From positions 1 through 61,451 of the forward strand of contig CAVEWV010000007.1 in the NCBI GenBank assembly GCA_963619535.1: DNA of 61,451 bases, given 5' to 3'. This DNA comes from Acutalibacteraceae bacterium. GTDB lineage: Bacteria; Actinomycetota; Coriobacteriia; Coriobacteriales; UMGS124. The position numbers and the translations under genes were made by a program. The stretch's first letter is position 1. Every line of letters starts with the position of its first letter. Under the pieces are notes generated by a model. It did not search any database, was not told where the DNA came from, and saw nothing but the letters and a program-made list of their open reading frames with translations. This document shows, piece after piece, positions 1-39,813 of this stretch.

Positions 1-236
1 CCACGGAGCCTTACGCGCGGTGCGCATCTTTGATGTACTCCAGTACGCTGCGCCTCCCGACGCCTTGCCGGCGAGAACCCGCGTTTTAGCGGGCGGAACC
101 TCGTCCGCGGCGTTGCGCAGGGCCTCACGCGCGGTGCGCACCTTTGGTGTACTCCAGTACACTACGGCCCTGCGCGCCTTGCGGACGAGGACCCGCGTTT
201 TAGTGGGCGGAACCTCGCCCGCTGCGTTGTTGGGGG
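1..236 (+). repeat. Partial array (about 2 units, cut by the window edge) of the long-hairpin intergenic repeat family
   Basis: One complete unit reads GCGGAAC-CTCGTCCGC-ggcgtt-GCGCAGGGCC-...GTACTccAGTAC...-GGCCCTGCGC-gcctt-GCGGACGAG-gacCCGCgTTTT. Both stem pairs are exact reverse complements. The conserved flanks match those at 6785, 8788, 11971 and 34683. Confidence 0.8.
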
Positions 237-1999: not shown

Positions 2000-2031
2000 C
2001 CTGGCGTTTCCTTATACCGCATGAGCGCATG

Positions 2032-2066
2032 GGGCCCGTGGGACGCAAGTCCTGCGGGCCCTTTTT
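2032..2066 (+). terminator. Intrinsic terminator after the protease gene
   Basis: GGGCCCG-tgggacgcaagtcctg-CGGGCCC followed by TTTTT, with an inner GGAC/GTCC pairing. Confidence 0.7.
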
Positions 2067-3971: not shown

Positions 3972-4048
3972 GGTGGGAGTAGCTCAGTTGGCAGAGCGTC
4001 GGATTGTGGCTCCGAAGGTCGAGGGTTCGAGCCCCTTTTCTCACCCCA
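3972..4048 (+). tRNA. tRNA-His (anticodon GTG)
   Basis: Hand-folded cloverleaf: extra G-1 paired to discriminator C (His hallmark), D stem GCTC/GAGC, anticodon stem TCGGA/TCCGA with loop TTGTGGC, T loop TTCGAGC, and encoded CCA. Confidence 0.9.
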
Positions 4049-4052
4049 TTTT

Positions 4053-4129
4053 GCGCCGTTAGCTCAGCTGGCCAGAGCAGGGGACTCTTAATCCCAAGGT
4101 CCAGGGTTCGAATCCCTGACGGCGCACCA
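4053..4129 (+). tRNA. tRNA-Lys (anticodon CTT)
   Basis: Acceptor GCGCCGT/ACGGCGC, D stem GCTC/GAGC, anticodon loop CTCTTAA, T arm CAGGG-TTCGAAT-CCCTG, and encoded CCA. Confidence 0.9.
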
Positions 4130-4527: not shown

Positions 4528-4645
4528 TATGCCCTGCGGGTTTTGAAGGACAGGCGCGGGAGCGTGCCCCTGCGGGTCTTGAAGGGCAGACGTGGGAGCG
4601 TGCCCTGCGGGTCTTGAAAGACTGACGTGGGGGCGTGCCCCTGCC
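4528..4645. repeat. About three tandem copies (period about 37-38 bp) of GTGCCC(C)TGCGGGTCTTGAAGGnCAGnCGnGGGAGC
   Basis: Consecutive near-identical units can be read directly at 4528-4645. Confidence 0.8.
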
Positions 4646-5098
4646 AGTGTGGGCCCGCGTGAGCGCATGATGGCGGGCGACGACGAGCACGCTCGTGACG
4701 TCATGGGGCCCGCATGAGCGCGCGGGCGATGGCGTGCCAGCGATTGTCAGGCAGCCTCGGACGCGCGGCCCTCGTCTCGGGATGGCGAACGCCTCGTCAT
4801 GTTCCGGGGGATGTCGGGCACCTCGCCGACACCTACGGCCCGCCCGGGCATCATCTTCTTCGATAGGAACGCCTTTGCGGCAAGGCTCACCCGGGGCTTT
4901 CCGCGCCTTACCCACCCAGGGTAATTGCTGTCATTTTCCCAGGTAAAAGCCAATAATCTAAAATTACCCGCCCTGGGCAATGGCCCTTGGGGACTCTCGG
5001 GCACATTATCTGCCGCAGCGACGCGCCAAGTGCACTGGCGCCTCGCACAGATCCGCGTGTGTTCCCACATAAGCTGAATGCATCGAGAGGAATCAACA

Positions 5099-6781
5099 AT
5101 GAGCATGACCCGTCGTTCCTTCGTCGCCGGCGCCTCCATGGCCGCCGCCGCCACGACCGCCCTGGCCGGCGCCTCCGCCGCCCTGGCCCAGGACACCGTC
5201 ACCGAGTCCGGCAACCCCGCCTGGCTGGGCGAGGCCCCCGAGATCGCCGAGGCCGACATCACCGAGACCGTCGAGACCGAGGTCCTCGTCTGCGGCTTCA
5301 ACACCGGTGGCGTGCCCTGCGCCCTGTCCTGCGCCCAGAACGGCTCCAAGACCTACGTCATCGAGCGTGACTCCGAGGAGACCTGCCAGAAGATGCGCGA
5401 GGACATCGGCGCCCTCAACTCCAAGCTGCAGCAGGCTTCCTTCGCCGAGTTCCCCGAGTTCGAGATCTCCGAGAAGGACGCCGTCGAGGACATCGTCCGC
5501 TACGCCAACGGCTTCTGCAACTATGACCTGATCAAGCTGTGGGCCCAGAAGTCCGGCGAGTGCATCGACTGGATCACCGAGACCATCGAGGCCACCGGCA
5601 AGTACGTCATGGAGTTCGAGGGCAGCGTCGGCAACCAGGACGGCGAGGGCCGCGACCGCGCCTACGCCACCGGCCACAGCCCCCAGCCCACCGACGCCGC
5701 CGGTGAGGACGACTCCTACACCAAGGTCATGCGTCAGGCTGCCATCGACGCCGGCGCCGAGGTCCGTTGGAGCTGCCCGCTGCGCAAGCTCGAGCAGGAC
5801 GAGACCGGCCGCGTGACCGGCGCCATCGCCGAGGACACCACCGACGGCCACTTCGTGCGCATCAACGCCTCCAAGGGCGTCGTGCTGGCCACCGGCGGCT
5901 ACTCCACCAACACGGAGATGATGACCGCCCTGCAGCCCGAGATCGTCGACGGCCGCATCCTGTGCACCTCCGGCTCCACCGACGACGGCTCCGGCATCAA
6001 GGCCGGCATGTGGCTCGGCGCCCGCAAGGACCCGATCGGCACCTCCATCCTGTTCAACCGCTGCTGCGTCACCCCTGAGGAGACCGCTGGCAACGGCGTC
6101 GTGGGCCGTTGGTTCTGGTTCGGCGAGCAGCCCTTCCTGAAGGTCAACCTTAACGGCGAGCGCTTCTGCAACGAGTCGGGCCCCTACGACTACATGCTGC
6201 ACAGCACCTGGAGCCAGCCCTACCACACCTACTGCGACATCTGGGACTCCGACGCCAAGGCCAAGGCCGAGCAGCTCAACGAGGTCGGCTGCTGCCGTCT
6301 GTTCCCCTTCGACAACGGCGCCCAGAACAACATCCCCTTCGATGTGGTCTGGAACAACATGAACGCCAAGCTCATCGAGGACGGCTACATCCAGCAGGCC
6401 GACACCATCGAGGAGCTCGCCGAGAAGCTCAACATCCCGGCTGAGAACCTGGTTGCCACCGTCGAGAAGTACAACGGCTTCTGCGACGCCGGCGAGGACA
6501 CCGATTACTACAAGGAGTCCTACCGCCTCACCAAGCTGGACACTCCGCCCTACTACGGCGTGCGCACCGGCTCCTGGCACCTCGCCACGTTCGACGGCCT
6601 GCTCATCAACACCAAGATGCAGGTTCTCGACCAGGACAACAACCCCATCGAGGGCCTCTACGCCATCGGTGACTGCTCGGGCGGCTTCTTCTGCGTGAGC
6701 TACCCCAACCTGTTCACCGGCCTGGCCTGCGGACGTACCTCCACCGAGGGCTACCTCGTCGGCCAGAACTTCGCCCAGTAA
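5099..6781 (+). CDS. Tat-exported FAD-dependent oxidoreductase (fumarate reductase / flavocytochrome-c flavoprotein family)
   Basis: RBS gagagg precedes the ATG at 5099 (the ORF track starts 21 nt earlier). The twin-arginine signal is MSMTRRSFVAGASMAAAATTALAGASAALA. An N-terminal dinucleotide-fold-like segment reads VLVCGFNTGGVPCAL, and the C-terminal GLYAIGDCSGGFF is typical of this flavoprotein family. Confidence 0.85.
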   Translation: MSMTRRSFVAGASMAAAATTALAGASAALAQDTVTESGNPAWLGEAPEIAEADITETVETEVLVCGFNTGGVPCALSCAQNGSKTYVIERDSEETCQKMREDIGALNSKLQQASFAEFPEFEISEKDAVEDIVRYANGFCNYDLIKLWAQKSGECIDWITETIEATGKYVMEFEGSVGNQDGEGRDRAYATGHSPQPTDAAGEDDSYTKVMRQAAIDAGAEVRWSCPLRKLEQDETGRVTGAIAEDTTDGHFVRINASKGVVLATGGYSTNTEMMTALQPEIVDGRILCTSGSTDDGSGIKAGMWLGARKDPIGTSILFNRCCVTPEETAGNGVVGRWFWFGEQPFLKVNLNGERFCNESGPYDYMLHSTWSQPYHTYCDIWDSDAKAKAEQLNEVGCCRLFPFDNGAQNNIPFDVVWNNMNAKLIEDGYIQQADTIEELAEKLNIPAENLVATVEKYNGFCDAGEDTDYYKESYRLTKLDTPPYYGVRTGSWHLATFDGLLINTKMQVLDQDNNPIEGLYAIGDCSGGFFCVSYPNLFTGLACGRTSTEGYLVGQNFAQ

Positions 6782-6784
6782 AGG

Positions 6785-7180
6785 TTGCGGAACCTCGTCC
6801 GCTGCGTTCTCGTGAGGCTCGCGTACATTTAGTACGCGTCGCCTCCCGACGCCTTGCGGACGAGAACCCGCTTTTGTAAGGGCGGAACCTGATGCGCCGC
6901 GTTCCGCGAAGCCTTACGCGCGGTGCGCACCTTTGGTGCACATCTAGTACGCTACGGCTCCGCGCGCCTTGCGCGCCAGAACCCGCTTTTGTGAGGGCGG
7001 AACCTCGCCGGCTGCGTTCCACGGGGCTCGTCGCAAAGACCGCTCCGTGTCGTGAGGCTCGCGTACGTCCAGTACGCTGCGCCTCCCGACGCCTTGCCGG
7101 CGAGAACCCGCTTTTGTAAGGGCGGAACCTCGCCGGCTGCGTTCTACGGGCGCTTGCAGGCTAGAAACCGCTCTTTAGGG
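6785..7180 (+). repeat. Array (about 3.5 units) of the long-hairpin intergenic repeat family
   Basis: It starts 6 nt after the reductase stop. The units carry GCGGAAC...CCGCTTTT flanks with complementary variable stems, e.g. CTCGTCCGC/GCGGACGAG and CTCGCCGGC/GCCGGCGAG. Confidence 0.85.
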
Positions 7181-7233
7181 GGTGGGGCCTTGGCGAGGGC
7201 TGAGGATTTGCGACATACTTTTAACGCATGGGG

Positions 7234-7268
7234 CACCCCGTCGGCACAAATGGCCGGCGGGGTGTTTT
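7234..7268 (+). terminator. Intrinsic terminator downstream of the repeat array
   Basis: CACCCCGtCGGC-acaaatg-GCCGGCGGGGTG followed by TTTT. Confidence 0.6.
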
Positions 7269-7307
7269 AGTATGGGAAAAGTTTGGTAGACGGGCAGGGG
7301 AGGGTCA

Positions 7308-8783
7308 ATGGAGCAGGAGCAGCGAAGCAACCCCTTTGCGGCCTCGCTGACGTTTGCCCGCGGCGTCTTCACCTCGCCGGCATGCTGGCGCGTCATTGCG
7401 GCGGTGGCCCTGGCAAACCTTGTCGTCCTGCTCATGAACCGCTCGTTCTTCCCGCTTTTCGACGACGTCTTCACCTACGCGCGCGACATCTCAATCTCCT
7501 GCAGCGGCGTCTTCTGCATCGCGGTGGGCCTCATCTCGCTCGTGCGTCCCGATTGCCTGCACGGCCGCATGCTCAGCGTGGGAATGCTCGTCGCCCTCGT
7601 CGCGGGTGCGGCCTTGTCGTGCGCCGGCCTTGCGTGGAACCTGCCGTTTCTGCTCGTGGCCGGGGCCTGCCTGTTTGTCACGGCACGCGGCTGGGGCATG
7701 CTCACCGCCAACCTCTCCGCCGTGCGCCTGCCAGCGTCTCAGGCTGTGACCTGCATTGTCTGTGGTATCGGCGTGGGCCAGGTGGCCGAGCTGCCCCTGC
7801 GCCTGCTTGCCCCCCAGCTCGCGTGCGTCGCGGTGATGTTTGTGGCGGCCGCCGGCTCCATCCTGCTATCTATGAGGACGGCCCAGGACATCGTCGACAC
7901 CATCGGGCGCAACGAGGCCGTCGCCGACATCGCGGTGACGCACCCCGCGTCGCTTCTGCCGCTCAACAGCCAGTTCTATGTCTTCCTCATCCTGTCGCAG
8001 GCTATCTTCGGCTTTGCGCTGCGGTTCGGCGAGGTGGGCGGCATGCCGGCCTTCGGCAGCATGTCGGCCTTCTTCGTGCTCGCCGTGGCCCTCATCGTCG
8101 TCGCCATGGGCGGCCGTCTTTTCAGCGACGTCCTGGCAAACGTGGTGGTGCTCGCGCTCATCGCGGGCTTTCTGCTTATCATCGCCGGCGGCGGCGCCAA
8201 CGTGTATTGGGCAAACGGCATCCTCACGGTGGGGACCACGCTGTTCAACGCCCTCATGTATGCCGTGCTCGTGGCCCTGGCCGGGCGCAACCGCCTGGCG
8301 AGCCTGTCCATCATGGGCTGGGGCGTGGGCCTGTCGAGCCTGTCCACCACTTTCGGCGCCCTTGTGGGTACAAGCGCAAACGCCCTGGTGGGGGCAGGCA
8401 ACCATGAGCAGCTTGCCGCCCTGGTGAGCGTCGTGGTGCTGCTCGTGGTGGCCTATATCCTCTTCGGCCTGCGCGGGTTCTCCTTCCAGGCCACCATCGA
8501 GGGCGTGGAGGCCATGCCCACGGGCCCCATCCCCGTGGTCGCCGACGCCCACGTCGGGGCCGAGGAGCTCTTCTGCGCGCGCGTCAGCGAGCTCGCCGCC
8601 AAGTACGGCCTGACGCCGCGCGAGGAGGAGACGTTCGCCATGCTTGCCCGCGGGCGCAACCGCGAGTACATCGAGGAGCGCCTGGGCGTGTCGCGCAACA
8701 CCGTGAAGGCCCACGTCAAGCACATCTACGCGAAGTTGGATATACACTCCCACCAAGAGCTTCTCGACCTCGTCGAAGAATAA
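7308..8783 (+). CDS. Membrane-anchored LuxR-family transcriptional regulator (multi-TM N-terminal domain plus C-terminal HTH)
   Basis: RBS gggagg. About 400 aa of repeated hydrophobic helices are followed by the LuxR-type HTH LTPREEETFAMLARGRNREYIEERLGVSRNTVKAHVKHIYAKLDIHSHQELLDLV. Confidence 0.85.
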   Translation: MEQEQRSNPFAASLTFARGVFTSPACWRVIAAVALANLVVLLMNRSFFPLFDDVFTYARDISISCSGVFCIAVGLISLVRPDCLHGRMLSVGMLVALVAGAALSCAGLAWNLPFLLVAGACLFVTARGWGMLTANLSAVRLPASQAVTCIVCGIGVGQVAELPLRLLAPQLACVAVMFVAAAGSILLSMRTAQDIVDTIGRNEAVADIAVTHPASLLPLNSQFYVFLILSQAIFGFALRFGEVGGMPAFGSMSAFFVLAVALIVVAMGGRLFSDVLANVVVLALIAGFLLIIAGGGANVYWANGILTVGTTLFNALMYAVLVALAGRNRLASLSIMGWGVGLSSLSTTFGALVGTSANALVGAGNHEQLAALVSVVVLLVVAYILFGLRGFSFQATIEGVEAMPTGPIPVVADAHVGAEELFCARVSELAAKYGLTPREEETFAMLARGRNREYIEERLGVSRNTVKAHVKHIYAKLDIHSHQELLDLVEE

Positions 8784-8787
8784 AGTG

Positions 8788-9230
8788 AGTAGCGGAACCT
8801 GGCGCGCCGCGTTCCACGGAGCCTTACGTACTCCAGTACGCTACGGCTCCGTGCGCCTTGCGCGCCAGAACCCGCTTTTAGAGGGATGCGGAACCTCACG
8901 CGCTGCGTTCCACAGGTGCTCATGTACTCCAGTACACATCGCACCTGTGCGCCTTGCGCGTGAGAACCCGCTTTTGGAGGGAGTTGCGGAACCTGGCGCG
9001 CTGCGTTCCTGGGAGGCTAGAGTACTCCAGTACACGTCGCCTCCCAGCGCCTTGCGCGCCAGAATCCGCTTTTAGAGGGAGTAGCGGAACCTGGCCTGCT
9101 GCGTTCTCGGGAGGCTCACGCGCGGTGCGCACCTTTGGTGTACATCTAGTACGCATCGCCTCCCGACGCCTTGCGGGCGAGAACCCGCTTTTGGAGGGAG
9201 TTGCGGAACCTCACGCGCTGCGTTCTGCCG
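8788..9230 (+). repeat. Array (about 4.5 units) of the long-hairpin intergenic repeat family
   Basis: It starts right after the LuxR stop. The units have period about 100 nt (longer when the apical insert is present), and two stem segments per unit co-vary between units (see findings). Confidence 0.9.
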
Positions 9231-9309
9231 GGCTCGCCGAGGGGGCGGCGTTGGGCAGTTTCGAACTTTCTGATGAGATGGTTGGCGTGCGCGTCTGGAA
9301 ACACGGGCG

Positions 9310-9318
9310 TGATAATAT
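9310..9318 (+). promoter_or_regulatory. Candidate extended -10 promoter element upstream of pyrG
   Basis: TGaTAATAT lies about 60 nt upstream of the pyrG ATG in a locally AT-rich patch. No convincing -35 was seen. Confidence 0.3.
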
Positions 9319-9379
9319 AAAATCCCGTAACTAAGCGTACGTTGCCACGAGGCAGAGCGAGAGGAACGGGATTCCACCA

Positions 9380-11011
9380 ATGACAAAACATGTATTCGTG
9401 ACCGGCGGCGTCGTCTCCTCGCTGGGCAAGGGCATCACTGCAGCCTCCCTGGGTCGTCTGCTCAAGAGCCGCGGCTACAAGGTCACGATGCAGAAGATGG
9501 ATCCCTACCTCAACGTCGATCCCGGCACGATGAGCCCCTTCCAGCACGGCGAGGTGTTCGTGACGGTGGACGGCCATGAGGGCGACCTCGACCTGGGCCA
9601 CTACGAGCGCTTCATCGACGAGTCGCTCAACCGCGACTCCAACGTGACGCAGGGCTCGGTGTACCAGACCCTCATCAACCGCGAGCGCCACGGCGACTTC
9701 CTCGGCGGCACCGTGCAGGTCATCCCCCACGTCACCAACGAGATCAAGGCCCGCATGCACCGCGTGGCCGACAAGGCCGGCGCCGACGTCGTCATCACCG
9801 AGATCGGCGGCACCATCGGCGACATCGAGTCGCAGCCCTTCATCGAGGCCATCCGCCAGTTCCGCAAGGACGTGGGCAACGACAACGTCTGCTATATTCA
9901 CGTGAGCCTGCTTCCCTACATCGCCGCCTCGCACGAGGTGAAGACCAAGCCCACCCAGCACTCCGTCAAGGAGCTGCGCGGCCTGGGCGTCTCCCCCGAC
10001 ATCATCGTGCTGCGCGCCGACCACGACGTCGACGAGAAGATCTGCCACAAGATCGCGTCGTTCTGCGACGTCGACCCCGACGCCGTCTTCGTGAACAGCG
10101 ACTGCCCCTCCATCTACGACGTTCCCACGCTCCTGGCTGACCAGGGCTTCGACCTCAAGGTCTGCGAGCGCCTGGGCCTCGACCCCCGCACCTCCGACAT
10201 GGACGAGTGGAACGCCTTCCTCGACGCCAAGTCGGCCGCCGAGGCCACCAGCGCCGAGCTGGGCGAGGTCAAGATCAAGCTTGTGGGCAAGTACACCCAG
10301 CTGCCCGACGCCTACCTCTCCGTCATCGAGGCCCTGCACCATGCCGGCGTCGCCAACGGCCGCGCCGTTGACATCGAGCTCATCGACGGCGAGAACCTCA
10401 ACGACGCCAACGCCGACGAGATCCTGGGCCAGGCCGACGGCATCCTCGTGCCGGGCGGCTTCGGTGTGCGCGCCTTCGAGGGCAAGGTGTGCGCGGCCCG
10501 CTACGCCCGCACCCACAAGATTCCCTACCTGGGTATCTGCCTGGGCATGCAGGTCGCGGTGACCGAGTTCGCCCGCGACGTCCTGGGCTGGGCCGACGCG
10601 CACTCCGCCGAGTTCAGCGAGTCCACGCAGCACCCCGTGATCGCCCTCATGCCCGACCAGGCCGGCATCGTGGACATGGGCGGCACCATGCGCCTCGGCG
10701 CCTACCCCTGCGTCGTCACCCCCGGCACCCTGGGCGCCCAGGCCTACGGCCAGGAGCAGATCTCCGAGCGCCATCGCCACCGCTTCGAGGTCAACAACGA
10801 GTTCCGCGACAAGCTCGTGGAGGCGGGCCTCGTGGTGAGCGGCACTTCGCCCGACGGCCGCCTCGTCGAGATGGTCGAGCTTCCCCGCGAGCAGCATCCG
10901 TGGTTCGTGGCCGGCCAGTTCCACCCAGAGTTCCAGAGCCGTCCCACCAAGCCGCACCCCTTGTTCCGCGACTTCATCAAGGCCTCCTGCGCCCAGGCCG
11001 ACGCCTGCTAG
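9380..11011 (+). CDS. pyrG: CTP synthase
   Basis: N-terminal FVTGGVVSSLGKGI. The glutamine amidotransferase nucleophile context is YLGICLGMQ, and HRHRFEVN lies near the C-terminus. Confidence 0.97.
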   Translation: MTKHVFVTGGVVSSLGKGITAASLGRLLKSRGYKVTMQKMDPYLNVDPGTMSPFQHGEVFVTVDGHEGDLDLGHYERFIDESLNRDSNVTQGSVYQTLINRERHGDFLGGTVQVIPHVTNEIKARMHRVADKAGADVVITEIGGTIGDIESQPFIEAIRQFRKDVGNDNVCYIHVSLLPYIAASHEVKTKPTQHSVKELRGLGVSPDIIVLRADHDVDEKICHKIASFCDVDPDAVFVNSDCPSIYDVPTLLADQGFDLKVCERLGLDPRTSDMDEWNAFLDAKSAAEATSAELGEVKIKLVGKYTQLPDAYLSVIEALHHAGVANGRAVDIELIDGENLNDANADEILGQADGILVPGGFGVRAFEGKVCAARYARTHKIPYLGICLGMQVAVTEFARDVLGWADAHSAEFSESTQHPVIALMPDQAGIVDMGGTMRLGAYPCVVTPGTLGAQAYGQEQISERHRHRFEVNNEFRDKLVEAGLVVSGTSPDGRLVEMVELPREQHPWFVAGQFHPEFQSRPTKPHPLFRDFIKASCAQADAC

Positions 11012-11014
11012 CCG

Positions 11015-11968
11015 GTGGCACCCCAATCTGACATGACGCAGTCGGCCAGGTCTGCCCTCGAGGCGGGCCTGGCCGACTTCATTGACTACCTCGTGGTGGA
11101 GAAGGGCTCGTCTGCCAACACGGTGGCGGCCTACAAGCGCGACTTGAAGGCCTGGATTGCCTGGCTTGACTTTGAGCAGGGCATACGCGAGCCCGACGAG
11201 GTGCAGCGCTGCCTTGTGGAGCAGTACCAGGCACATCTGCACGATCAGGGCAAGGCCGCCTCGTCCATCCAGCGCGCCTTGTCGGCCATAAAGGGCCTGC
11301 ACAAGTTCCTCTACCTCGACGGTGCGTCGCAGAAGCTGCCCACCTCCGAGGTCAAGGCCCCGCGCAAGCCCGAGCGCCTCCCCGAGACCATCTCCATCGA
11401 GAAGGCGTTCGAGCTGCTTGACCAGCCCTTCCCCGACACGGCCGCGGGGCATCGCGACAAGACGATGCTCGAGGTGCTTTACGGCTGCGGCCTGCGCGTC
11501 AGCGAGCTGTGCGGCCTGGATCTGTCGGCATGCTTCCTCGACGACGGGTTCCTGCGCATCTTCGGCAAGGGCAGCAAGGAGCGCCTCGTGCCCATCGTGG
11601 GCAGCGCGCTTCGCTGCCTGCAAGACTATCTCGCCGTGTGGCGAGGGCAGCTGCACCCGTCGGGTGCGGCGCTGCCCGCCGAGACGCACGCGGTGTTCCT
11701 CAACGCGCGCGGTGGGCGCATCTCGCGCCAGAGCGTCTTCAATGTGGTGGAGCGTGCTGGCGTGGCCGTGGGCATCCCGGGCCTGCACCCCCATGTGCTG
11801 CGGCATGCCTTCGCGTCGCACATGCTGGCCGGCGGCGCCGACCTGCGCGTGCTCCAGGAGATTCTGGGGCACGCCGACATCTCCACGACCCAGGTGTACA
11901 CCCATGTGGATAGGGAGCATATACGCGAGGAATACTACTCCTCCCACCCTCGCGCCCACTGTAAATAG
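11015..11968 (+). CDS. xerD: Tyrosine site-specific recombinase XerD (XerC/XerD family)
   Basis: The catalytic region is HPHVLRHAFASHMLAGGADLRVLQEILGHADISTTQVYTHV. The xerD assignment rests on pyrG-xerD synteny, as in other actinobacteria. The start could instead be the internal ATG (MTQSARS). Confidence 0.85.
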   Translation: MAPQSDMTQSARSALEAGLADFIDYLVVEKGSSANTVAAYKRDLKAWIAWLDFEQGIREPDEVQRCLVEQYQAHLHDQGKAASSIQRALSAIKGLHKFLYLDGASQKLPTSEVKAPRKPERLPETISIEKAFELLDQPFPDTAAGHRDKTMLEVLYGCGLRVSELCGLDLSACFLDDGFLRIFGKGSKERLVPIVGSALRCLQDYLAVWRGQLHPSGAALPAETHAVFLNARGGRISRQSVFNVVERAGVAVGIPGLHPHVLRHAFASHMLAGGADLRVLQEILGHADISTTQVYTHVDREHIREEYYSSHPRAHCK

Positions 11969-11970
11969 TT

Positions 11971-12090
11971 GCGGAACCTGGCCTGCTGCGTTCTCGGGAG
12001 GCTTACGTACATTTAGTACGCTGCGCCTCCCGACGCCTTGCAGGCCAGAACCCGCTTTTGGAGGGGCGGAACCTCGGCGGCTGCGTGCGC
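11971..12090 (+). repeat. Single unit plus partial unit of the long-hairpin repeat family
   Basis: It begins 3 nt after the xerD stop. The stems are CTGGCCTGC/GCAGGCCAG and TCGGGAGGC/GCCTCCCGA, followed by CCGCTTTT. Confidence 0.85.
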
Positions 12091-12221
12091 GGGTGGTGTC
12101 ATGGGTGTGCGGGGTGGTGGGGCGATATCGCATGGAATTGCATGGAATGTGGCATCGAGGCGGCTTCATGGTGTATCCTGGCCCCTACGTTGGACGACTC
12201 TCGCCGCCTGGGGAGGTTGCA

Positions 12222-12662
12222 GTGAGCCAAGAGATGCAGCAGACATGCTTCACCGGCGTGGCCGAGCACGTGCTCGACGCGAAGGGTCGCGTGTCCCTGC
12301 CCGCCAAGGCCCGCCGCAACCTGGGCGACACGGTCAAGTGCGTGCTGTCTTTGGACAAGAGGGCGGTCTTGGTCTTCTCGCCCCAGGGCTTCGACGCTTG
12401 GTTCAAGTCGTTCTTCCCCGAGGGCCTCAACCCCCGCTCCGAGCGGGAGACGAGGCTTGCCCAGCGCCTGCTTGCCTTCACCGAGGAGGCCGACATCGAC
12501 TCGGCCGGCCGCATCGGCATCTCGGCAAAGCTGCGCGGGATCGTGGGCCTGGAGAAGGAGGTCGCCATCATCGGTGGCGGCGACCATCTCGAGGTCGTTG
12601 ACAGGGCGTCGTACCAGCGCGTCGAGGACGACCTTCTTTCCTTTGACTTTTTGGAGGCGTAG
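12222..12662 (+). CDS. mraZ: Transcriptional regulator MraZ
   Basis: Two DxxxR-type repeats (LDAKGRVSLP and IDSAGRIGIS) and first position in the dcw cluster. A GTG at 12222 follows RBS ggggagg; an in-frame ATG at 12234 is the alternative start. Confidence 0.9.
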   Translation: MSQEMQQTCFTGVAEHVLDAKGRVSLPAKARRNLGDTVKCVLSLDKRAVLVFSPQGFDAWFKSFFPEGLNPRSERETRLAQRLLAFTEEADIDSAGRIGISAKLRGIVGLEKEVAIIGGGDHLEVVDRASYQRVEDDLLSFDFLEA

Positions 12663-13649
12663 GTGGACTCGACGAACATGCACGACGGCACCCCTGCAGC
12701 AGAATTCCGGCATATCCCCGTCATGCTGGACGAAGTTCTGGACGCCCTGCGTCCAAGTGACGGCGACGTCGTGTGCGATTGCACGCTCGGCGGCGCCGGC
12801 CACTCCCTTGAGCTGGGTAGGCTGTGCAGCCCGTCCGGATTGCTCATCGGCATCGACCAAGACGACCTCGCCTTGGAAAACGCCGGCAAGCGCATCCGGG
12901 CAAACATACCCGAAGTCAAGTCTATCCAGCTCAAGGGCAACTTCTCCGAGCTCGACCGCCTGCTCCAGCAGGCCCAGGTCCCCGGTGTGGACTGCATCCT
13001 GTTCGACCTGGGCGTCAGCTCCCCCCAGCTTGACATCGCCTCAAGGGGCTTCTCGTACCACGAGGACGCCCCGCTCGACATGCGCATGGACACGGGCAAC
13101 AACACCCTAACCGCACTTGAGGTCGTGAACCACTACAACGAAGCCGACCTCGCCCGCATCCTTCGCGTCTATGGCGAGGAGAAGTTCGCCAGCCGCATCG
13201 CCAGCCGCATCGTGGCGCGCCGCGCCAAGGCCCCCATCGAGACCACGCTGCAGCTGGTGGACGTCATCAAGGAGGCCATCCCGGCCGCGCAGCGCCGCCA
13301 GGGCGGCCACCACCCGGCCCGCAAGAGCTTCCAGGCCATCCGCATCGAGGTCAACCACGAGATGGACGCCTTGAAGTCGGGCCTGGACGCGGCGGTGCGC
13401 TGGCTCAACAAGGGCGGGCGCATCTGCGTCATCTCGTACCACTCCCTTGAGGACCGCATCGTGAAGGAGGCGTTCAAGTCCTTCACGCAGACGTGCACCT
13501 GCCCGCCCGACCTTCCGGTGTGCGTGTGCGGGGCCAAGCCGGTGCTGAAGCTGCAGGAGCGCAAGCCTCGGGTGCCCAGCGATGATGAGATTGTACGTAA
13601 TCCGCGTTCTCGCTCCGCCAAGATACGAAGTGCGGTCAAGCTGGTCTAG
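12663..13649 (+). CDS. rsmH: 16S rRNA (cytosine1402-N4)-methyltransferase
   Basis: HIPVML, the SAM-binding DCTLGGAGHS, and the C-terminal NPRSRSAKIR. Confidence 0.95.
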   Translation: MDSTNMHDGTPAAEFRHIPVMLDEVLDALRPSDGDVVCDCTLGGAGHSLELGRLCSPSGLLIGIDQDDLALENAGKRIRANIPEVKSIQLKGNFSELDRLLQQAQVPGVDCILFDLGVSSPQLDIASRGFSYHEDAPLDMRMDTGNNTLTALEVVNHYNEADLARILRVYGEEKFASRIASRIVARRAKAPIETTLQLVDVIKEAIPAAQRRQGGHHPARKSFQAIRIEVNHEMDALKSGLDAAVRWLNKGGRICVISYHSLEDRIVKEAFKSFTQTCTCPPDLPVCVCGAKPVLKLQERKPRVPSDDEIVRNPRSRSAKIRSAVKLV

Positions 13650-33014: not shown

Positions 33015-33623
33015 ATGACCGCACCCATTACGCCGCAGGCCAGCTCCCTTGCCGTGCGGCACTCGATGCAGGGCAACCGCAGCCGCGACACCAAGCCCGA
33101 GATAGCCGTGCGCACCTACCTGCGCCAGAAGGGCCTCACCGGGTATCGGCTGCAGTGGAAGAAGGCCCCCGGCAGGCCCGACGTGGCCTATCCCGGCAGG
33201 CGCGTCGCCATCTTCGTGCACGGCTGCTTCTGGCATCGCTGCCCCTTCTGCCATCCCAGTTCGCCTTCGACCAACGTCGAGTTCTGGTCGGCCAAGTTCG
33301 AGCGCAACCAGGCCCGTGACGCCCGCGACACGCAGGCCCTGGTGCAGGACGGCTGGACAGTTGTTGTTGTCTGGGAATGCCGGCTGAAAAAGCGCCATCT
33401 GCGTCGTACCATGTGCGAGGTGGCCGCCCTGGTGGAGCAGGCGGGCACCGTCAAGACCAAGGCCGACGTCCGGCCCGGCCGCAAGGTCGTGCTCGGCCGC
33501 ACCTGCGTGCACGGCCCGCGCGGCTTGGCCGCGCAGAGAATCCGCAAGCGAAGGGCCGCCCCACACGGCATGCGCCCGTCTATGTCAAACGAAGGTTCAG
33601 CAAAGAGAAGGGGACGTCCATGA
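33015..33623 (+). CDS. vsr: Very-short-patch repair endonuclease (Vsr family) with a basic C-terminal extension
   Basis: NRSRDTKPEIAVR, GRPDVAYPGRRVAIFVHGCFWH, NVEFWSAKFERN and GWTVVVVWEC. Confidence 0.88.
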   Translation: MTAPITPQASSLAVRHSMQGNRSRDTKPEIAVRTYLRQKGLTGYRLQWKKAPGRPDVAYPGRRVAIFVHGCFWHRCPFCHPSSPSTNVEFWSAKFERNQARDARDTQALVQDGWTVVVVWECRLKKRHLRRTMCEVAALVEQAGTVKTKADVRPGRKVVLGRTCVHGPRGLAAQRIRKRRAAPHGMRPSMSNEGSAKRRGRP

Positions 33624-34675
33624 CCGACCAGACCCAGACCGACAAGCCCTGCATCCTCGTCACGGGCGGCGCGGGCTTCATCGGCAGCCACACCTGCGTG
33701 GAGCTGCTCGACTCAGGCTACGACGTCGTGGTGATCGACGACCTCTCCAATGCCAGCGAGGTCGCCCTGAAGCGCGTCGAGCGCATCACGGGCAAGAAGA
33801 TCCGCGCCTTCTACGAGGGCGACGTGAAGGACGGCGCGCTTCTCGACCGCATCTTCGAGGAGCATCCCATCGCCGGCGCCATCCACTTCGCGGCGTTCAA
33901 GGCCGTCGGTGAGAGCGTCCACAAGCCTATCGAGTACTACCAGAACAACCTGGGCGGCACGCTCGAGCTGGCCCGCGCGCTTCGCGACCACGGCGTGTAC
34001 GACATCGTGTTCTCCTCCTCGGCCACCGTCTACGGCCAGCCCGACGAGGTGCCCGTGCGCGAGGACGCCCAGCTCAAGCCCGCCACGAACCCCTACGGTC
34101 GCACGAAGGTCATGAACGAGCAGATGCTCGCCGACCTCTACACCGCAGACGAGCGCTGGAACGTCATGCTGCTTCGCTACTTCAACCCCATCGGCGCCCA
34201 TGAGTCGGGCCTCATCGGCGAGGACCCCAAGGGCATCCCGAACAACCTGGTGCCCTACGTGGCCAAGGTCGCGGTGGGCCAGCTCGACCACATCAACGTC
34301 TTCGGCGGCGACTATCCCACGCCCGACGGCACCGGCGTGCGCGACTACATCCACGTGGTCGATCTTGCCCGCGGCCATGTGAGCGCCCTGAACTACATGC
34401 GCGGCAAGCACGGCGTGCACGTGTTCAACCTGGGCACCGGCCACGGCTACAGCGTGCTCGACGTCATCCACGCTTTCGAGCGCGCCTGCGGCAAGGAGCT
34501 TCCCTACGAGATGTGCCCGCGCCGCGACGGCGACATCGCGCAGACCTACTGCGACGCCAGCAAGGCCAAGGAGCTCATGGGCTGGGAGGCACAGTACGAC
34601 ATCGACGACATGTGCGCCCACTCCTGGAAGTGGCAGAGCACTAACCCCAACGGCTACGTTGGAGCTACGGAGTAA
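33620..34675 (+). CDS. galE: UDP-glucose 4-epimerase
   Basis: ILVTGGAGFIGSH Rossmann motif, SSSATVYG, and the catalytic YGRTK. The ATG at 33620 overlaps the vsr stop (ATGA). Confidence 0.95.
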   Translation: MTDQTQTDKPCILVTGGAGFIGSHTCVELLDSGYDVVVIDDLSNASEVALKRVERITGKKIRAFYEGDVKDGALLDRIFEEHPIAGAIHFAAFKAVGESVHKPIEYYQNNLGGTLELARALRDHGVYDIVFSSSATVYGQPDEVPVREDAQLKPATNPYGRTKVMNEQMLADLYTADERWNVMLLRYFNPIGAHESGLIGEDPKGIPNNLVPYVAKVAVGQLDHINVFGGDYPTPDGTGVRDYIHVVDLARGHVSALNYMRGKHGVHVFNLGTGHGYSVLDVIHAFERACGKELPYEMCPRRDGDIAQTYCDASKAKELMGWEAQYDIDDMCAHSWKWQSTNPNGYVGATE

Positions 34676-34682
34676 GAAGGTT

Positions 34683-34870
34683 GCGGATGCGCCGTGGCGG
34701 CGTTGCGCAGGGGCTCACGTACCGCCGTACGCAGCGCCCCTGCGCGCCTTGCCACGACGCATCCGCTTTGTGCGGACGTTGCGAATCCGCCGTGGCCGCG
34801 TTGCGCAGAGCCTCATGTACGCCCAGTACACATCGGCCCTGCGCGCCTTGCCACGACGCATTCGCTTTGT
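34683..34870 (+). repeat. Two units of a variant of the long-hairpin repeat family
   Basis: GCGGATGCGCCGTGGC...GCGCAGGGGC...GTACcgccGTAC...GCCCCTGCGC...GCCACGaCGCATCCGC-TTTG. It starts 8 nt after the galE stop. Confidence 0.85.
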
Positions 34871-34917: not shown

Positions 34918-36588
34918 ATGGACATGCGCATCGAGATTAACGACGAGGTGGGCCAGAACATCCTGGCAAACGAGGAGATCGAGCGCCTCGTGGCGTGCGT
35001 GCTGGAGGGGGAGGGCTGCCCCGAGCCGTGCGAGGTGTCGGTGAGCTTCGTCGACGCCGACGAGATCCACCGCCTCAACCTGGAGTACCGCGGCATCGAC
35101 AAGCCCACCGACGTGCTGTCGTTCAACATCGACGACCCCGACGAGGTGGAGGAGGGCGAGCCGTTCATGGTGGGCGACCTCATCATCTGCCCGGCCGTGG
35201 TGGAGAGGCAGGCCCCCGAGTTCGGCAACGACCCGGCCGACGAGATGCGCCTGCTGCTGTCGCACGGCTGCCTCCATCTCATGGGCTACGACCACGAGGA
35301 CGCCCGCGAGGCCGAGGAGATGGAGAACCTCGAGCGTGCCTACCTGGCCGACTTCACGGGCGTGCCCCCCGAGCAGATCAACATCGGCCCCACGGTCGAT
35401 CACGCCGCCGAGGGCACGCAGGCCCACCCTGCCGCCAAGCCCGCCTCCACCCAGCCCGCCCAGTGGCAGGACCTTCCCGCCGAGGGCGACGACTCCGACG
35501 ACGAGGATTTCGACGACGATGAGGACTGGGACGACGAGGACGTCGTCGGGTTCGACAACCCCGACGGCCTGTCGGGCACCGCGCTCATCGACGCCTTCTT
35601 CGCCTCGCAGGGCGGCAACGTCGCGGGCGGCGCCGACGAGGAGGCTGGCCATGAGGACGCCTCGCGTTACATGCACCCCGCAACGTATGAGGGCCCCTTC
35701 AAGAGCGGCTTCGTGAGCCTGGTGGGCCGCCCCAACGCCGGCAAGTCCACCCTCATCAACGCCATCGTGGGCGACAAGCTGCTCATCACCTCGCCCACCG
35801 CGCAGACCACGCGCCACCGCATCTCGGCCGTGTACAACGAGCCCAACATGCAGGTCGTGCTCGTAGACACCCCCGGCCTGCACAAGCCGGTGGACGCCCT
35901 GGGCGAGGAGCTCAACATCTCGGCGCTCAACGCCCTCAAGGACGTCGACGTCGTGGCCATGGTGCTCGACGGCTCCCAGCCTGCGGGGCGCGGCGACGAG
36001 TGGGTGGCCCAGCACGTGGCCCAGAGCCGCGCCTACAAGGTGCTCGTGGTGACCAAGGCCGACATCATCGCGCAGGACCAGGCCCGCGAGCAGGTCATGC
36101 GCATGAGGGAGTTCTGCCCCTTCGACGAGGCCATCGTGGTGAGCGCCCAGGAGAACTTCAACGTCGACGGCTTTTTGCAGGTCGTGGCCGCGCACCTGCC
36201 CCAGGGCCCGCGGTGGTTCCCGGTGGACATGCAGACCGACATGTCGCCCGAGGTCGTGGTAGCCGAGTTCATCCGCGAGAAGGTGCTGCTCAACACGCGT
36301 GACGAGGTGCCGCACTCCGTGGGTGTGGCGGTGGACTCCACCCGCTACGACGAGAAGGCCAACATCTCGCACATCAACGCCACGGTCTACGTGGAGCGCG
36401 AGGGCCAGAAGGGCATCATCATCGGCGCCGGCGGCAAGATGATCAAGCGCATCGGCGTGCAGGCCCGCCGCGACCTGGAGCGCCTGCTCGGCAACCAGGT
36501 CATGCTCAAGCTCAACGTCAAGGTGAAGCCCGGCTGGCGTTCCGACGCCGCCCAGATCAAGCGCTTCGGCTACGGCGAGGGCGCGTAA
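34918..36588 (+). CDS. ybeY/era: Single ORF fusing rRNA-maturation endoribonuclease YbeY (N-terminal) to GTPase Era (C-terminal) through an acidic linker
   Basis: The YbeY zinc motif is HGCLHLMGYDH (around aa 115). A D/E-rich linker (DDSDDEDFDDDEDWDDED) follows. Era then shows G1 GRPNAGKST, G3 DTPG, G4 TKAD and the KH region VEREGQKGIIIGAGGKMIKRIG. No stop codon separates the two halves in the given sequence. Confidence 0.85.
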   Translation: MDMRIEINDEVGQNILANEEIERLVACVLEGEGCPEPCEVSVSFVDADEIHRLNLEYRGIDKPTDVLSFNIDDPDEVEEGEPFMVGDLIICPAVVERQAPEFGNDPADEMRLLLSHGCLHLMGYDHEDAREAEEMENLERAYLADFTGVPPEQINIGPTVDHAAEGTQAHPAAKPASTQPAQWQDLPAEGDDSDDEDFDDDEDWDDEDVVGFDNPDGLSGTALIDAFFASQGGNVAGGADEEAGHEDASRYMHPATYEGPFKSGFVSLVGRPNAGKSTLINAIVGDKLLITSPTAQTTRHRISAVYNEPNMQVVLVDTPGLHKPVDALGEELNISALNALKDVDVVAMVLDGSQPAGRGDEWVAQHVAQSRAYKVLVVTKADIIAQDQAREQVMRMREFCPFDEAIVVSAQENFNVDGFLQVVAAHLPQGPRWFPVDMQTDMSPEVVVAEFIREKVLLNTRDEVPHSVGVAVDSTRYDEKANISHINATVYVEREGQKGIIIGAGGKMIKRIGVQARRDLERLLGNQVMLKLNVKVKPGWRSDAAQIKRFGYGEGA

Positions 36589-37654: not shown

Positions 37655-38440
37655 GTGCCGGGTAAGTTCAAGGCGCGCGGCGTCGTCGTGCGACGCACGA
37701 AGCTCGCCGAGAGCGACCTCATCGTGACGCTGCTGGCCGACCGGCCCTCCCAGCTGCGCGTCGTGGCGAAAGGCGCCCGCAAGCCTGCCTCGAGGCTCGC
37801 CGGGACCATGAACCTGGGCAACGAGGTGGAGCTGCTCGTGAGCGAGGGCAGGAGCCTGGGCGTGGTGAGCGAGGCCCGCCTAATGCGCTCCCACGCCGGC
37901 CTCGCCGCCGACTACGACCGGGCCGTCCTCATGGACGCCGTGCTCGACTGCGCCTGCGAGCTCACCGCCGAGGGCGACCACGACCCCCGGGTGCTGCCCC
38001 TGTTGAGCGCCACCCTCGACGCCTTCGATGCGGCCGAGCCTGCGTGCCTGCCGCTTCTGGCGGCCGCCTTCGCGCTCAAGGCCGCGGCCATGCAGGGCTT
38101 TCGTCCCAGCCTCGACGCGTGCGTTCGCTGCGGCGCCCCCGTGGAGCTCGCCGCCGCCGCCCCGGCCACATCGGCGTTCGACATAGCCGAGGGCGGCGTT
38201 GTGTGTCCCGAGTGCGCCGGGAGCGCCACCTGCACCCATGTGCCTACGCCGACGCTCGCCTGGGCGCAGGCCCTCATCTCCCTGCGCCTGGCCGACATCT
38301 GCGCCTGCGAGTTTCCCGACGAGTCCCGCAAGCTCGCATGCGGCTTCGACGAGCTGCGCTTCGCCCAGGTCTGGCTCGGCCACTACCCCGGCATCCGTCC
38401 CCGCGCCTTGGACTTCGCTTTAACGACCGGGCTGTACTAG
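37655..38440 (+). CDS. recO: DNA repair protein RecO
   Basis: The N-terminal OB-fold-like segment is KARGVVVRRTKLAESDLIVTLL, with zinc-finger cysteines CVRCG...CPEC. It lies downstream of era. The proposed start is the GTG at 37655. Confidence 0.85.
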   Translation: MPGKFKARGVVVRRTKLAESDLIVTLLADRPSQLRVVAKGARKPASRLAGTMNLGNEVELLVSEGRSLGVVSEARLMRSHAGLAADYDRAVLMDAVLDCACELTAEGDHDPRVLPLLSATLDAFDAAEPACLPLLAAAFALKAAAMQGFRPSLDACVRCGAPVELAAAAPATSAFDIAEGGVVCPECAGSATCTHVPTPTLAWAQALISLRLADICACEFPDESRKLACGFDELRFAQVWLGHYPGIRPRALDFALTTGLY

Positions 38441-38544
38441 ATTGCTTCCCTTTTCTGCTTCTTTACTAAATCCAATTCGTGCCTTGTTTGCGATATGGGC
38501 GCAGATAAAGAGCGACAGACAAGAATAAGTAAAATAATTATGTC

Positions 38545-38576
38545 TTGACAATTATACAATTATGTAAGCATAACTA
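38545..38576 (+). promoter_or_regulatory. Candidate promoter with a tandem ACAATTAT repeat upstream of the islet gene
   Basis: TTGACA is followed by ATTATACAATTATGTAAGCATAAC. The direct repeat ACAATTAT-ACAATTAT overlaps the spacer. The -10 assignment is ambiguous. Confidence 0.4.
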
Positions 38577-38618
38577 TTGTATTAGCCAAGGTCATCCCTG
38601 ACAAGAAAGGTGGTTGTT

Positions 38619-39212
38619 ATGGTCATCTCACGCAGGGAAATGATCAAGGCGGCTGGCGCGGTAGCGTTGGCAAGCGTTGGTTTGCTTGGAGCCAACATTG
38701 CAAGAGCAAACGTCGTAGATGAGGATTCAATCAACGCACGGTTCAACCAAATATTCCAGGCATATGAGCTTGGTGACATCCTCTCTCCAGAGGACACTGC
38801 ATTTGTTAAGGAGTACGGGCGCGCATCCATTAACAGCATGGCTCGTGATTCGGGTGTCGTAGATGAAAGCCGGACCTTTAATGGGACAACTTACTACGTC
38901 CGCGGCAATTGGTACGATGACGATGATAACGAAACATTGGCGTGGCACAACTACGGTGCAACTTTACAAGGAGGCACTCCGGCGTGTGTCTCACAGCAGA
39001 TTACAGTTGTCATGTGCTATATGGCATATGGATTTGTTGGTAGTGCCTATCAGGTGATTCATAAAGACGAGCAGTCAAACTCCGACAATGATGTCAAATG
39101 GAACGCGGCAGACTTCTCTGGTTCATACTGGGGCGTTTTCGTTAACTCGAGCATGTCCTGCTATACACAAATCAAGCCCTATTCGGGCTCTACATTCAAG
39201 GTGCCCAAATAG
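38619..39212 (+). CDS. Hypothetical Tat-signal secreted protein (no recognisable domain)
   Basis: RBS aaagg is 8 nt before the ATG. The twin-arginine signal is SRREMIKAAGAVALASVGLLGANIARA. The mature part is rich in Y/W/N/D and its codon usage is atypical for the window. Confidence 0.7.
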   Translation: MVISRREMIKAAGAVALASVGLLGANIARANVVDEDSINARFNQIFQAYELGDILSPEDTAFVKEYGRASINSMARDSGVVDESRTFNGTTYYVRGNWYDDDDNETLAWHNYGATLQGGTPACVSQQITVVMCYMAYGFVGSAYQVIHKDEQSNSDNDVKWNAADFSGSYWGVFVNSSMSCYTQIKPYSGSTFKVPK

Positions 39213-39373
39213 CGCGGCAAGCCCCCGGTTTTAACGGAGCCACTATCTCGGGAGATATAAAGTTGGCGACGCGCCGTCTTCTGAGGACGCAGCTTTTGTT
39301 GAGTGCAATCCAAGGCAAGATGGATGGGCATACCAAGGGCGGAGTACTCTATGGAGATTGGAGTTGATGGAAT

Positions 39374-39733: not shown

Positions 39734-39766
39734 TGCTCTCGTCGCATGACAAACGTTTGAAAAGGG

Positions 39767-39799
39767 GAGGGCCGCCGGGTTATGCATCCGGCGGCCCTC
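39767..39799. terminator. Bidirectional hairpin between the islet and convergent rsmI
   Basis: A perfect 12-bp stem, GAGGGCCGCCGG-gttatgcat-CCGGCGGCCCTC. Confidence 0.65.
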
Positions 39800-39813
39800 T
39801 GCGTGTCTTGTAC

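Follow-up and report, generated by a model that had tools for sequence, protein, structure and literature searches.

What are the tandem hairpin repeats that lie directly behind a LuxR/GerE-family regulator gene in the genome of a gut bacterium of the Coriobacteriales (deposited as Acutalibacteraceae bacterium, GenBank assembly GCA_963619535.1, contig CAVEWV010000007.1), and which rules govern their position and their variation? The stretch of DNA analysed (the window, i.e., the whole 61,451 nt) carries them at positions 8788-9230, where an initial annotation, made from the letters alone, had described a tandem array of units of about 100 nt with long stems and terminal T-tracts. That array is indeed present, with a leader (8784-8791), four units and a lone 5' arm reaching 9225, and comparison with related contigs (designated here by L-numbers, such as L011 or L063) shows that it belongs to a lineage-specific, non-coding interspersed repeat family of an uncultured gut Coriobacteriia clade, whose arrays stand behind stop codons and strictly in sense orientation.

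The window contains five arrays, all on the + strand and at the five loci that had been counted before (Table 1), with 11 units that are full, one with an internal deletion and one that the window edge cuts, in place of the roughly 14 units first estimated, together with four to five lone 5' arms. For the array at 8788-9230, TRF gives a period of 98 and 3.4 copies, and a 22-nt pattern derived from the 5' arm finds 13 matches in the window, only on the + strand, with 0.06 expected. All these arrays begin 2-8 nt past stop codons. Because almost all of the ~49 genes of the window are on the + strand, the rule that an array shares the strand of its upstream gene is untestable inside it, and it was tested on independent contigs. 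There, all of the 54 evaluable arrays (those not cut by a contig end) are downstream of, and co-oriented with, an open reading frame (ORF), as the initial annotation had claimed. In 44 of them, the array starts no more than 20 nt behind the stop of a long ORF that is on the same strand and whose GC content at third codon positions (GC3) is of the coding type, 40 of these 44 starting 1-11 nt past the stop, with a mode of 6 nt; the remaining 10, missed through lower GC3 or short contigs, show on inspection the stop codon of a same-strand ORF within ~32 nt. Convergent gene pairs have one array each, pointing inwards (in L057, at 9021-9350 on the + strand and at 9424-9605 on the - strand; also in L063), and the orientation therefore tracks the gene and not the replication fork. 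Downstream, 37 of 57 arrays have a co-directional neighbour and 20 a convergent one, at distances that go from 10 to more than 2000 nt. The host genes share no common function, with a protease, a reductase, a regulator, a recombinase and an epimerase among them.

The link to the stop codon is even written in the repeat. The leader that precedes the first unit has the consensus T-A-G-n-R-n-G-T-T-GCGG, homologous to the linkers between units (TTT-TAG-TGG-GTT-GCGG), so that the stop codon is often part of the conserved repeat sequence. One and the same gene ends in ...GTLV* in one strain (L021) and in ...GTLLG* in another (L042), because different leader variants abut a single coding sequence.

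Each unit is an interrupted hairpin of 84-137 nt with ~30 base pairs, followed by a run of three to five T, and nearly all units adopt a near-identical minimum-free-energy fold; the GC content of the family is about 65%. The basal helix P1 (GCGG/CCGC) is followed by a 3x3 internal loop, AAC over AAC. Above it, P2 (9 bp, the stem S1 of the initial annotation) is bounded by an invariant CT...GC, with one unpaired pyrimidine next to it; P3 (GCG/CGC) has a TTC bulge above it on the 5' strand and a CTT bulge below it on the 3' strand; and P4 (9 bp, the stem S2) carries the apex GTAC-N4-5-GTAC. The T3-5 run abuts the closing pair. The fold of a single unit (-54.3 kcal/mol, z = -7.1) is equalled by none of 200 shuffles, and the whole array gives z = -6.5. 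The T-tract said to end each unit is found, as a run of at least three T within 6 nt of the closing pair, in 119 of 132 units, and as a run of at least four in 97 of them. The lengths fall into discrete classes (84-85, 104-105, 115-116, 124 and 134-137 nt), behind which there are three optional modules, given by a 20-nt apical insert on either side of the apex and an extra P3-P4 branch. The insert can stand on one side of the apex or on the other, the two versions being reverse complements of each other, which suggests that the unit was ancestrally a longer palindrome. The lone 5' arm was also considered as a self-folding transposase hairpin (GGAAC...GTTCC) and was discarded as such, given that it has no significant fold (z = 0.2 to 1.7).

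What remains constant when the stems change? The divergent subfamilies (window 34683-34869; L075 9508-9730) have exchanged their outer stems and retained the partly unpaired core, YGCGTT(C/G)...CGCCTTGC, together with a GTAC/GTAT apex. The fifth array of the window is an example, with a swapped outer stem (GCGGATGCG.../...CGCATCCGC, without the AAC loop) and a preserved inner core (GCGTTG...CGCCTTGC) and GTAC apex. The unpaired motifs GAAC, GTTC, CTTG and GAAC are constant while the helices covary, and conserved unpaired bases of this kind, which would be expected of a fold recognised by a protein, may hint at such a recognition. A further subfamily is found in L018 (8252-8458) and L055 (2194-2440), with the leader TCTCACCCGATC, an outer stem GCGGAG... 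and a start 19-20 nt past the stop codon; it scores 55-77 bits with the covariance model R1.

Searches of the window and of syntenic and metagenome contigs with that model yielded 134 units, 118 of them distinct. Among 15 hand-picked units, 96.4% of the pair cells are paired and both sides change in 14 of 30 pairs; among the 118 distinct units, in an alignment that is fitted to R1, the figures are 95.5% and 22 of 30. These covariation values are reached by none of 500 shuffles, and pairing falls to 25-51% when the partner columns are slid by 1-3 positions. The S1 and S2 strings quoted in the initial annotation, and the apical insert at 9120-9139, are exact. Its statement that the stems of neighbouring units differ and yet stay exact reverse complements applies to units 1-3 of the array, but not to unit 4, which is imperfect and slightly chimeric, with S1 arms of differing types (CTGGCCTGC vs the complement of CTCGCCCGC).

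Does this covariation prove that the folded RNA is under selection? The stems turn out to be few and discrete. Two S1 alleles, CTGATGCGC and CTCGTCCGC, are present in 42 units each of 132 (64% together), and the next commonest are CTCACGCGC, CTGGCCTGC, CTCGCCGGC and CTGGCGCGC. The same S1 alleles are common to different loci and species, as are those of S2, and S1 and S2 assort independently. Furthermore, 38 of 132 distinct units (~29%) have S1 arms of non-matching alleles, P2 then showing at least two mismatches. The variable stems are, in consequence, discrete alleles that have been moved as blocks and have not evolved in place. The covariation is real, but it reflects the copying and recombination of whole palindromic modules and is, alone, no proof of RNA-level selection, as DNA-level copying of palindromic modules would give an equal signal. 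The initial argument from double compensatory changes to a fold under selection is not supported in the form in which it was made, in view of the shared discrete alleles, the chimeras with mismatched arms that arise from deletions, and the lack of a consistent G.U tolerance. In this sense, the family is a caution for covariation methods, with a very strong signal that comes largely from recombining discrete palindromic alleles. An avoidance of the same allele by neighbouring units is not supported (16 of 103 observed vs 19% expected), and the copying of multi-unit segments between loci is unsupported in L065, whose arrays behind the FAD and LuxR genes share the order of S1 alleles and not S2 or the apex.

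The way in which the arrays change can be followed among ten contigs that encode an identical PyrG protein, all from gut-metagenome assemblies of the ENA (two of the records are labelled chimpanzee). At a given site, the number of units goes from 1 to 5 across these strains. The array behind the xer gene reads [CGTCC][GATGC][CGCCG]... in most of them and [CGTCC 5' arm / GATGC 3' arm][CGCCG] in L067 and L072, i.e., a deletion has fused adjacent units, and chimeric units therefore mark deletions between adjacent units. The arrays evolve by unequal recombination. Sister species differ in whether an orthologous site has an array. In the comparison of L058 with L063, whose flanks are 92-98% identical, the filled L063 has exactly one extra unit, flanked by repeated GCGGAACCT; the boundaries of this difference are unplaceable, the closest "empty" allele (L058) retains the leader and a lone 5' arm, and farther empty sites are too diverged for a filled/empty comparison. 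A second regularity is that the last unit is 3'-truncated in almost every array. Of 47 distinct cases, 46 lose their homology to a unit after its first 5-32 nt and never pass the ascending half of the hairpin, and the sole exception stops at 57 nt. A truncation at a fixed GTTC or GAAC was considered and rejected, the end points being spread over 5-32 nt. As variable-number tandem repeat (VNTR) markers, the arrays would be well suited to the typing of strains in metagenomes of the primate gut. Short-read assemblies break in the arrays, as in L011 (3.3 kb), which is bounded by arrays at both ends, or in L065, with an N-gap inside an array at 12900-13000; of 84 collection blocks carrying this PyrG, 61 have no contig longer than 2-5 kb.

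How far does the family extend? The nearest named relatives of the host are Collinsella and Thermophilibacter, whose PyrG proteins share 72% identity with its own. A gapped pattern run once against metagenomes picked out 49 contigs, ~39 of them with real units, and ~130 units in 62 arrays are now known on related contigs. The family reaches relatives down to 82% PyrG identity, where it appears as a diverged subfamily (L075), and it was not found in the ~20 kb that surround pyrG in the relatives with 84% and 79% identity, nor at the syntenic loci of Collinsella (L079) and Thermophilibacter (L080), searched with filters off. The xer-mraZ spacer of the former (L079, 12707-13692, 987 nt) has neither the hairpin family nor a tandem repeat. 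No match was found in plasmids, phages and IMG/VR viral contigs. For the LuxR-family protein, a look-up of the exact sequence gave no record. A scan of reference genomes with CGCCTTGC-N7-GAACCCGCTTT returned 10 chance matches in unrelated phyla and has no bearing on the distribution, since its spacing was off by one (the true spacing is N6). With Rfam, only three tRNAs pass in the window, and at E <= 10 the best overlap within 6600-12400 is a 20.9-bit chance match to sX9 (gathering score 44). The consensus, which had not been recognised at the outset, thus matches no Rfam family, and it is uncatalogued as far as the searched libraries show. Literature searches found no structured repeat family for gut Coriobacteriia, to which the present one adds such a family.

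What, then, would the units do? Judging from their shape and position, it is on balance probable that, when transcribed, they act as terminators and/or 3'-exonuclease barriers for the upstream transcript. A unit transcribed as the 3' untranslated region (3' UTR) of the preceding gene would fold into a ~30-bp hairpin with a GCGG/CCGC closure, followed by U3-5; this hairpin would end the upstream transcript and/or block 3' exonucleases, and tandem copies would give redundancy. As the stem begins ~6 nt past the stop codon, the terminating ribosome would have to melt its base, and an effect on the translation termination of the upstream gene is plausible. At the DNA level, the arrays are rarely seeded at new gene ends and, after that, expand, contract and reshuffle via unequal recombination or slippage between units, in a VNTR-like manner. 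The native terminators of the lineage (window 2031-2062 and 7228-7268) consist of a stem followed by TTTT(A/G) and have the same shape as the units. There are also precedents in other bacteria: SPRITE is a terminator-like repeat enriched at the 3' ends of coding sequences (PMC3049150), REPs are mostly downstream of ORFs (PMC3733652), and ribosomes are reported to stall at E. coli REPs that lie no more than 15 nt from a stop codon (PMC12306157).

Several observations weigh against this terminator or barrier role. An ordinary gene-specific terminator comes within 220 nt after at least 11 of the 57 arrays (by eye, after more of them), so that termination at those genes does not require the repeats. 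Such native terminators follow the second array of the window and, likewise, arrays in L035, L038, L039, L043, L058 and L063; where a gene has its own terminator, the array is inserted between this and the stop codon. The stems are much longer than those of ordinary terminators, while the basal helix has only 4 bp under a 3x3 loop. The antisense strand folds slightly better than the sense one (-58.9 vs -54.3 kcal/mol), the AAC/AAC loop becoming a pairable GUU/GUU, and single mismatches of P4 on the sense strand are of the A.C kind in 18 types vs three of the G.U kind; P1 variants favour the sense strand, opposite to P4, so that the G.U vs A.C asymmetry is inconsistent among helices. P2 is disrupted in about a quarter of the units, which speaks against strong selection on each unit. 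Finally, neither the strict conservation of the asymmetric bulges (TTC, CTT and AAC) nor the truncated last unit is explained by a terminator role, and both hint at recognition by a protein.

Could the repeats be there for their own sake? It is possible, if rather unlikely, that they are a purely selfish, non-autonomous element mobilised in trans by an HUH transposase (RAYT/IS200-type Y1 or IS91-type Y2 rolling-circle), the terminator shape being a matter of target choice or tolerance. This would fit the presence or absence of arrays between species of a single clade, the discrete stem subfamilies, the stop codon often contained in the conserved leader and the constancy of the unpaired motifs across divergent subfamilies with changing stems, which is typical of protein-recognised folded single-stranded DNA; moreover, GAAC, GTTC and CTTG are target/cleavage tetranucleotides of the IS91 family (PMC13181058), and the last unit is truncated as if left-to-right copying had been aborted at the next hairpin. 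However, no transposase was detected with Pfam in the window or with tblastn in 708 kb including related loci (nothing below E = 0.1), in a weak test with IS200 TnpA and E. coli RAYT sequences as queries. Neither a target-site duplication nor a terminal inverted repeat was identified, no recent identical copies were seen at different loci (two arrays sharing their S1 order differ in S2 and in the apex), the truncation points are scattered instead of falling at one tetranucleotide, strict co-orientation with genes is not a trait of the known REP and MITE families, and all the observed array changes are explicable by host recombination. It is an unlikely proposal that the units are substrates of an HUH-type (possibly IS91-like) enzyme that reads the unpaired GAAC/GTTC/CTTG and installs sense copies at stop codons, which would make them mobile self-propagating terminators; if this were true, the pattern of n units plus a truncated one would be the mark of a synthesis that continues past a unit and breaks off on the way up the following hairpin.

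The remaining explanations give the repeats a host function other than termination or protection of the transcript. By analogy with the E. coli REPs, the stop-proximal hairpin might regulate the translation or the mRNA decay of the upstream gene by stalling termination and triggering cleavage or rescue, a possibility that agrees with the short stop-to-stem distance, with the supply of the stop codon by different leader variants and with the precedent cited in PMC12306157; it is nonetheless improbable, since it leaves the T-tracts, the tandem copies and the truncated terminal unit unexplained and the host genes are functionally unrelated. A function at the DNA level of the kind suggested for BIMEs, in which a chromosomal protein (gyrase, a nucleoid protein or a recombinase) would bind a cruciform or single-strand hairpin, would be compatible with a palindrome that the antisense strand forms equally well or better, with the lack of a G.U signature on the sense strand and with conserved, asymmetric sequence motifs, but strict co-orientation with transcription and a one-sided T-tract would be unexpected, the copy number is highly variable between strains, and the convergent pairs suggest that orientation tracks transcription even against replication, all of which makes this function very improbable. 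As for small RNA genes or 5'-UTR regulatory leaders of the downstream gene (e.g., pyrG), the units are highly structured and arrays do lie upstream of pyrG and mraZ; yet they are anchored to the upstream stop codon and not to the distant and variable downstream start, the 20 arrays that face a convergent gene largely refute the idea, the downstream genes are unrelated and the arrays are absent from the same sites in sister species, so that it can hardly be credited at all. Termination and/or protection of the upstream transcript is, of all these, the most likely reading.

Table 1. Repeat arrays of the window, their units and adjoining features.
Feature	Positions	Strand	Evidence
Array 1: cut unit 1-86, full unit 93-200 with apical insert, lone 5' arm 207-234	1..235	+	Covariance model, fold
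Array 2, behind FAD_binding_2 reductase gene 5078-6781 (stop 5 nt upstream)	6787..7175	+	Pfam, covariance model
Array 2, units: 6787-6875, 6882-6990, 6997-7115; internally deleted unit 7122-7175		+	
Canonical intrinsic terminator right after array 2, 17-bp stem + TTTT	7228..7268	+	Fold -31.2 kcal/mol, z = -5.5; conserved in sister species L012 (8281-8318)
LuxR/GerE-family regulator gene, 491 aa; TAA stop 8781-8783, 8 nt before first hairpin	7308..8783	+	Pfam GerE E = 9e-12
Leader of array 3, AGTGAGTA, homologous to inter-unit linkers	8784..8791	+	Position profile, 53 first-unit leaders + 65 inner linkers
Array 3	8792..9225	+	
Array 3, unit 1, 88 nt: S1 CTGGCGCGC, S2 CACGGAGCC, apex GTAC-TCCA-GTAC, then TTTT	8792..8879	+	Fold -54.3 kcal/mol, z = -7.1; covariance model 111 bits
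Array 3, unit 2: S1 CTCACGCGC, S2 CACAGGTGC	8888..8975	+	Fold, covariance model
Array 3, unit 3: S1 CTGGCGCGC, S2 CTGGGAGGC	8986..9073	+	Fold, covariance model
Array 3, unit 4, 109 nt, 20-nt apical insert 9120-9139	9084..9192	+	Sequence, fold
Lone 5' arm GCGGAACCTCACGCGCTGCGTTC closing array 3, without 3' partner	9203..9225	+	No fold alone, z = 0.16
Sigma-70-like promoter match between array 3 and pyrG (9380-11011)	9296..9323	+	Consensus scan
Array 4, behind xerC/D-like gene 11015-11968 (stop 2 nt upstream): unit 11971-12059, lone 5' arm 12066-12093	11971..12093	+	
Array 5, divergent subfamily, behind epimerase gene 33377-34675 (stop 7 nt upstream)	34683..34869	+	Covariance model 75-76 bits
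Array 5, units: 34683-34770, 34781-34869; degenerate 5' arm after them		+	

Regarding the surroundings of the arrays, the promoter-like site that lies between array 3 and pyrG suggests that pyrG is a separate transcription unit. Downstream of this site there is a leader block conserved across species (GTGATAAWATRAAAYCCCGTAAC ... GAGAGGAACGGGA; window 9240-9379, L012 9880-10000, L015 9900-10000), which may be a regulatory leader of pyrG. Directly downstream of array 5, a single ORF of 556 aa (34918-36588) looks like a fusion of ybeY and era, with a YbeY endoribonuclease, an Era-type GTPase and KH domains. Other repeats are also present in the window. Downstream of the tRNA genes 3973-4045 and 4053-4126, a non-coding tandem repeat of 35-36 nt (4530-4644; 3.2 copies, consensus CCCTGCGGGTCTTGAAGGACAGACGTGGGAGCGTGC) is unrelated to the hairpin family, and the 3' part of the gene of an HtrA-like protease (392-1999) contains a CGGCTA hexamer (~23 copies) and a 48-nt repeat (1798-1935), which correspond to a low-complexity Gly/Tyr-rich tail. 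The region 38000-40600 has a low GC content (0.57 vs ~0.68), its ORFs 38610-39212, 39374-39733 and 39733-40596 have no Pfam match, and it may have been horizontally acquired; the idea of an insertion sequence or transposase there (37.6-40.6 kb) is unsupported, with no Pfam match. Of the 49 called genes, ~45 lie on the + strand, and yet the GC skew is negative over the whole window (C > G on the coding strand).

To which known systems can the family be compared? Some candidates were discarded on anatomy. The sequences GCGGAAC/GTTGCGG do not fit the RYYYAAC/GTTRRRY of integron attC sites, no ORFs lie between units, and the genes behind which the arrays are dispersed are unrelated; the one tyrosine recombinase in the vicinity is the syntenic housekeeping xer gene, found in Collinsella without repeats. 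CRISPR, type III ToxI-like repeats and retron msd were equally rejected, with no ORFs, cas, toxin or reverse transcriptase genes nearby. Ordinary intrinsic terminators share with the units a GC-rich stem that abuts a T-tract, downstream of a stop codon and co-oriented with the gene, but they are unique sequences with stems of 5-17 bp, whereas the units are repeated, three times longer, arranged in tandem and sometimes placed before a real terminator. A coding role, in the manner of the coupling ORFs of MIRUs (mycobacterial interspersed repetitive units), was rejected as well, as the periods of about 96, 98, 98 and 119 nt break the frame, and the longest frame through units 1-3 ends in the TAG of a linker and has a GC3 of ~65%, vs 85-95% in genes. 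MIRUs are reportedly co-oriented with their flanking genes. Found in Actinobacteria, they are head-to-tail intergenic units of 40-100 nt, variable in number between strains, whose ends abut or overlap the adjacent stop codon (PMC3184786), as is the case here; unlike the present units, they lie inside operons, with small ORFs that overlap the flanking stop and start codons, and are not long perfect hairpins with T-tracts.

Like MITEs and interspersed repeats in general, the family is short, non-coding, multi-copy, dispersed and insertion-polymorphic (five loci in 61 kb). In IS91/Helitron-type elements (PMC13181058), GTTC/CTTG stand next to subterminal hairpins, and these elements make no target-site duplication, end imprecisely at a hairpin and are strand-specific; the resemblance is at motif level only and serves as a lead. 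No known ori/ter pair is nearly as small as the units, and no Y2 transposase was identified, no search aimed at it having been made. The family also resembles REPs, BIMEs and REPINs (PMC3733652, PMC3116915), extragenic GC-rich palindromes that are mostly downstream of ORFs, clustered and of strain-variable copy number, and which have been proposed to terminate transcription, to stabilise mRNA and to stall ribosomes close to stop codons. In a REPIN, two inverted REPs of ~25 nt form a hairpin of ~100 nt, much as two inverted arms of ~23 nt do here, although these arms are not palindromic themselves and differ by conserved asymmetric bulges. Nor do the units correspond to a REP in the strict sense (a 20-40-bp palindrome with a GTAG/CGTC tag), in view of their length and of a junction that reads GTTG in most cases and GTAG in a minority (e.g., 8789-8792), the leaders of first units having T at position -2 in 66% and at position -1 in 69%. 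BIMEs alternate in orientation, whereas the present units are head-to-tail and co-oriented with the gene. Literature searches found no REP family in Actinobacteria or Coriobacteriia.

Closest in shape and position is SPRITE of S. pneumoniae (PMC3049150). Both are non-coding repeats of ~100 nt with a long stem and a U-rich tract, longer than ordinary terminators, and both are located near the 3' ends of coding sequences and between convergent genes, in a narrow clade and with no identified transposase or target-site duplication. They differ in that SPRITE is AT-rich and unrelated in sequence, and in that the family described here, rich in GC, has a ~30-bp stem with bulges, one to five units in tandem, a truncated last unit, a stop-locked start and covarying stem alleles. 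The initial annotation's view of a dispersed, non-coding, palindromic 3'-UTR repeat of the REP/ERIC/BIME kind is upheld: the family is akin to the REP/SPRITE/MIRU-like 3'-UTR repeats without being, by its sequence, a member of any of them, and the rules that it follows (stop adjacency, sense orientation and a truncated last unit), unusually clean for a REP-like family, provide a handle on the old question of whether repeats of this type behave as selfish DNA, as terminators or as both.

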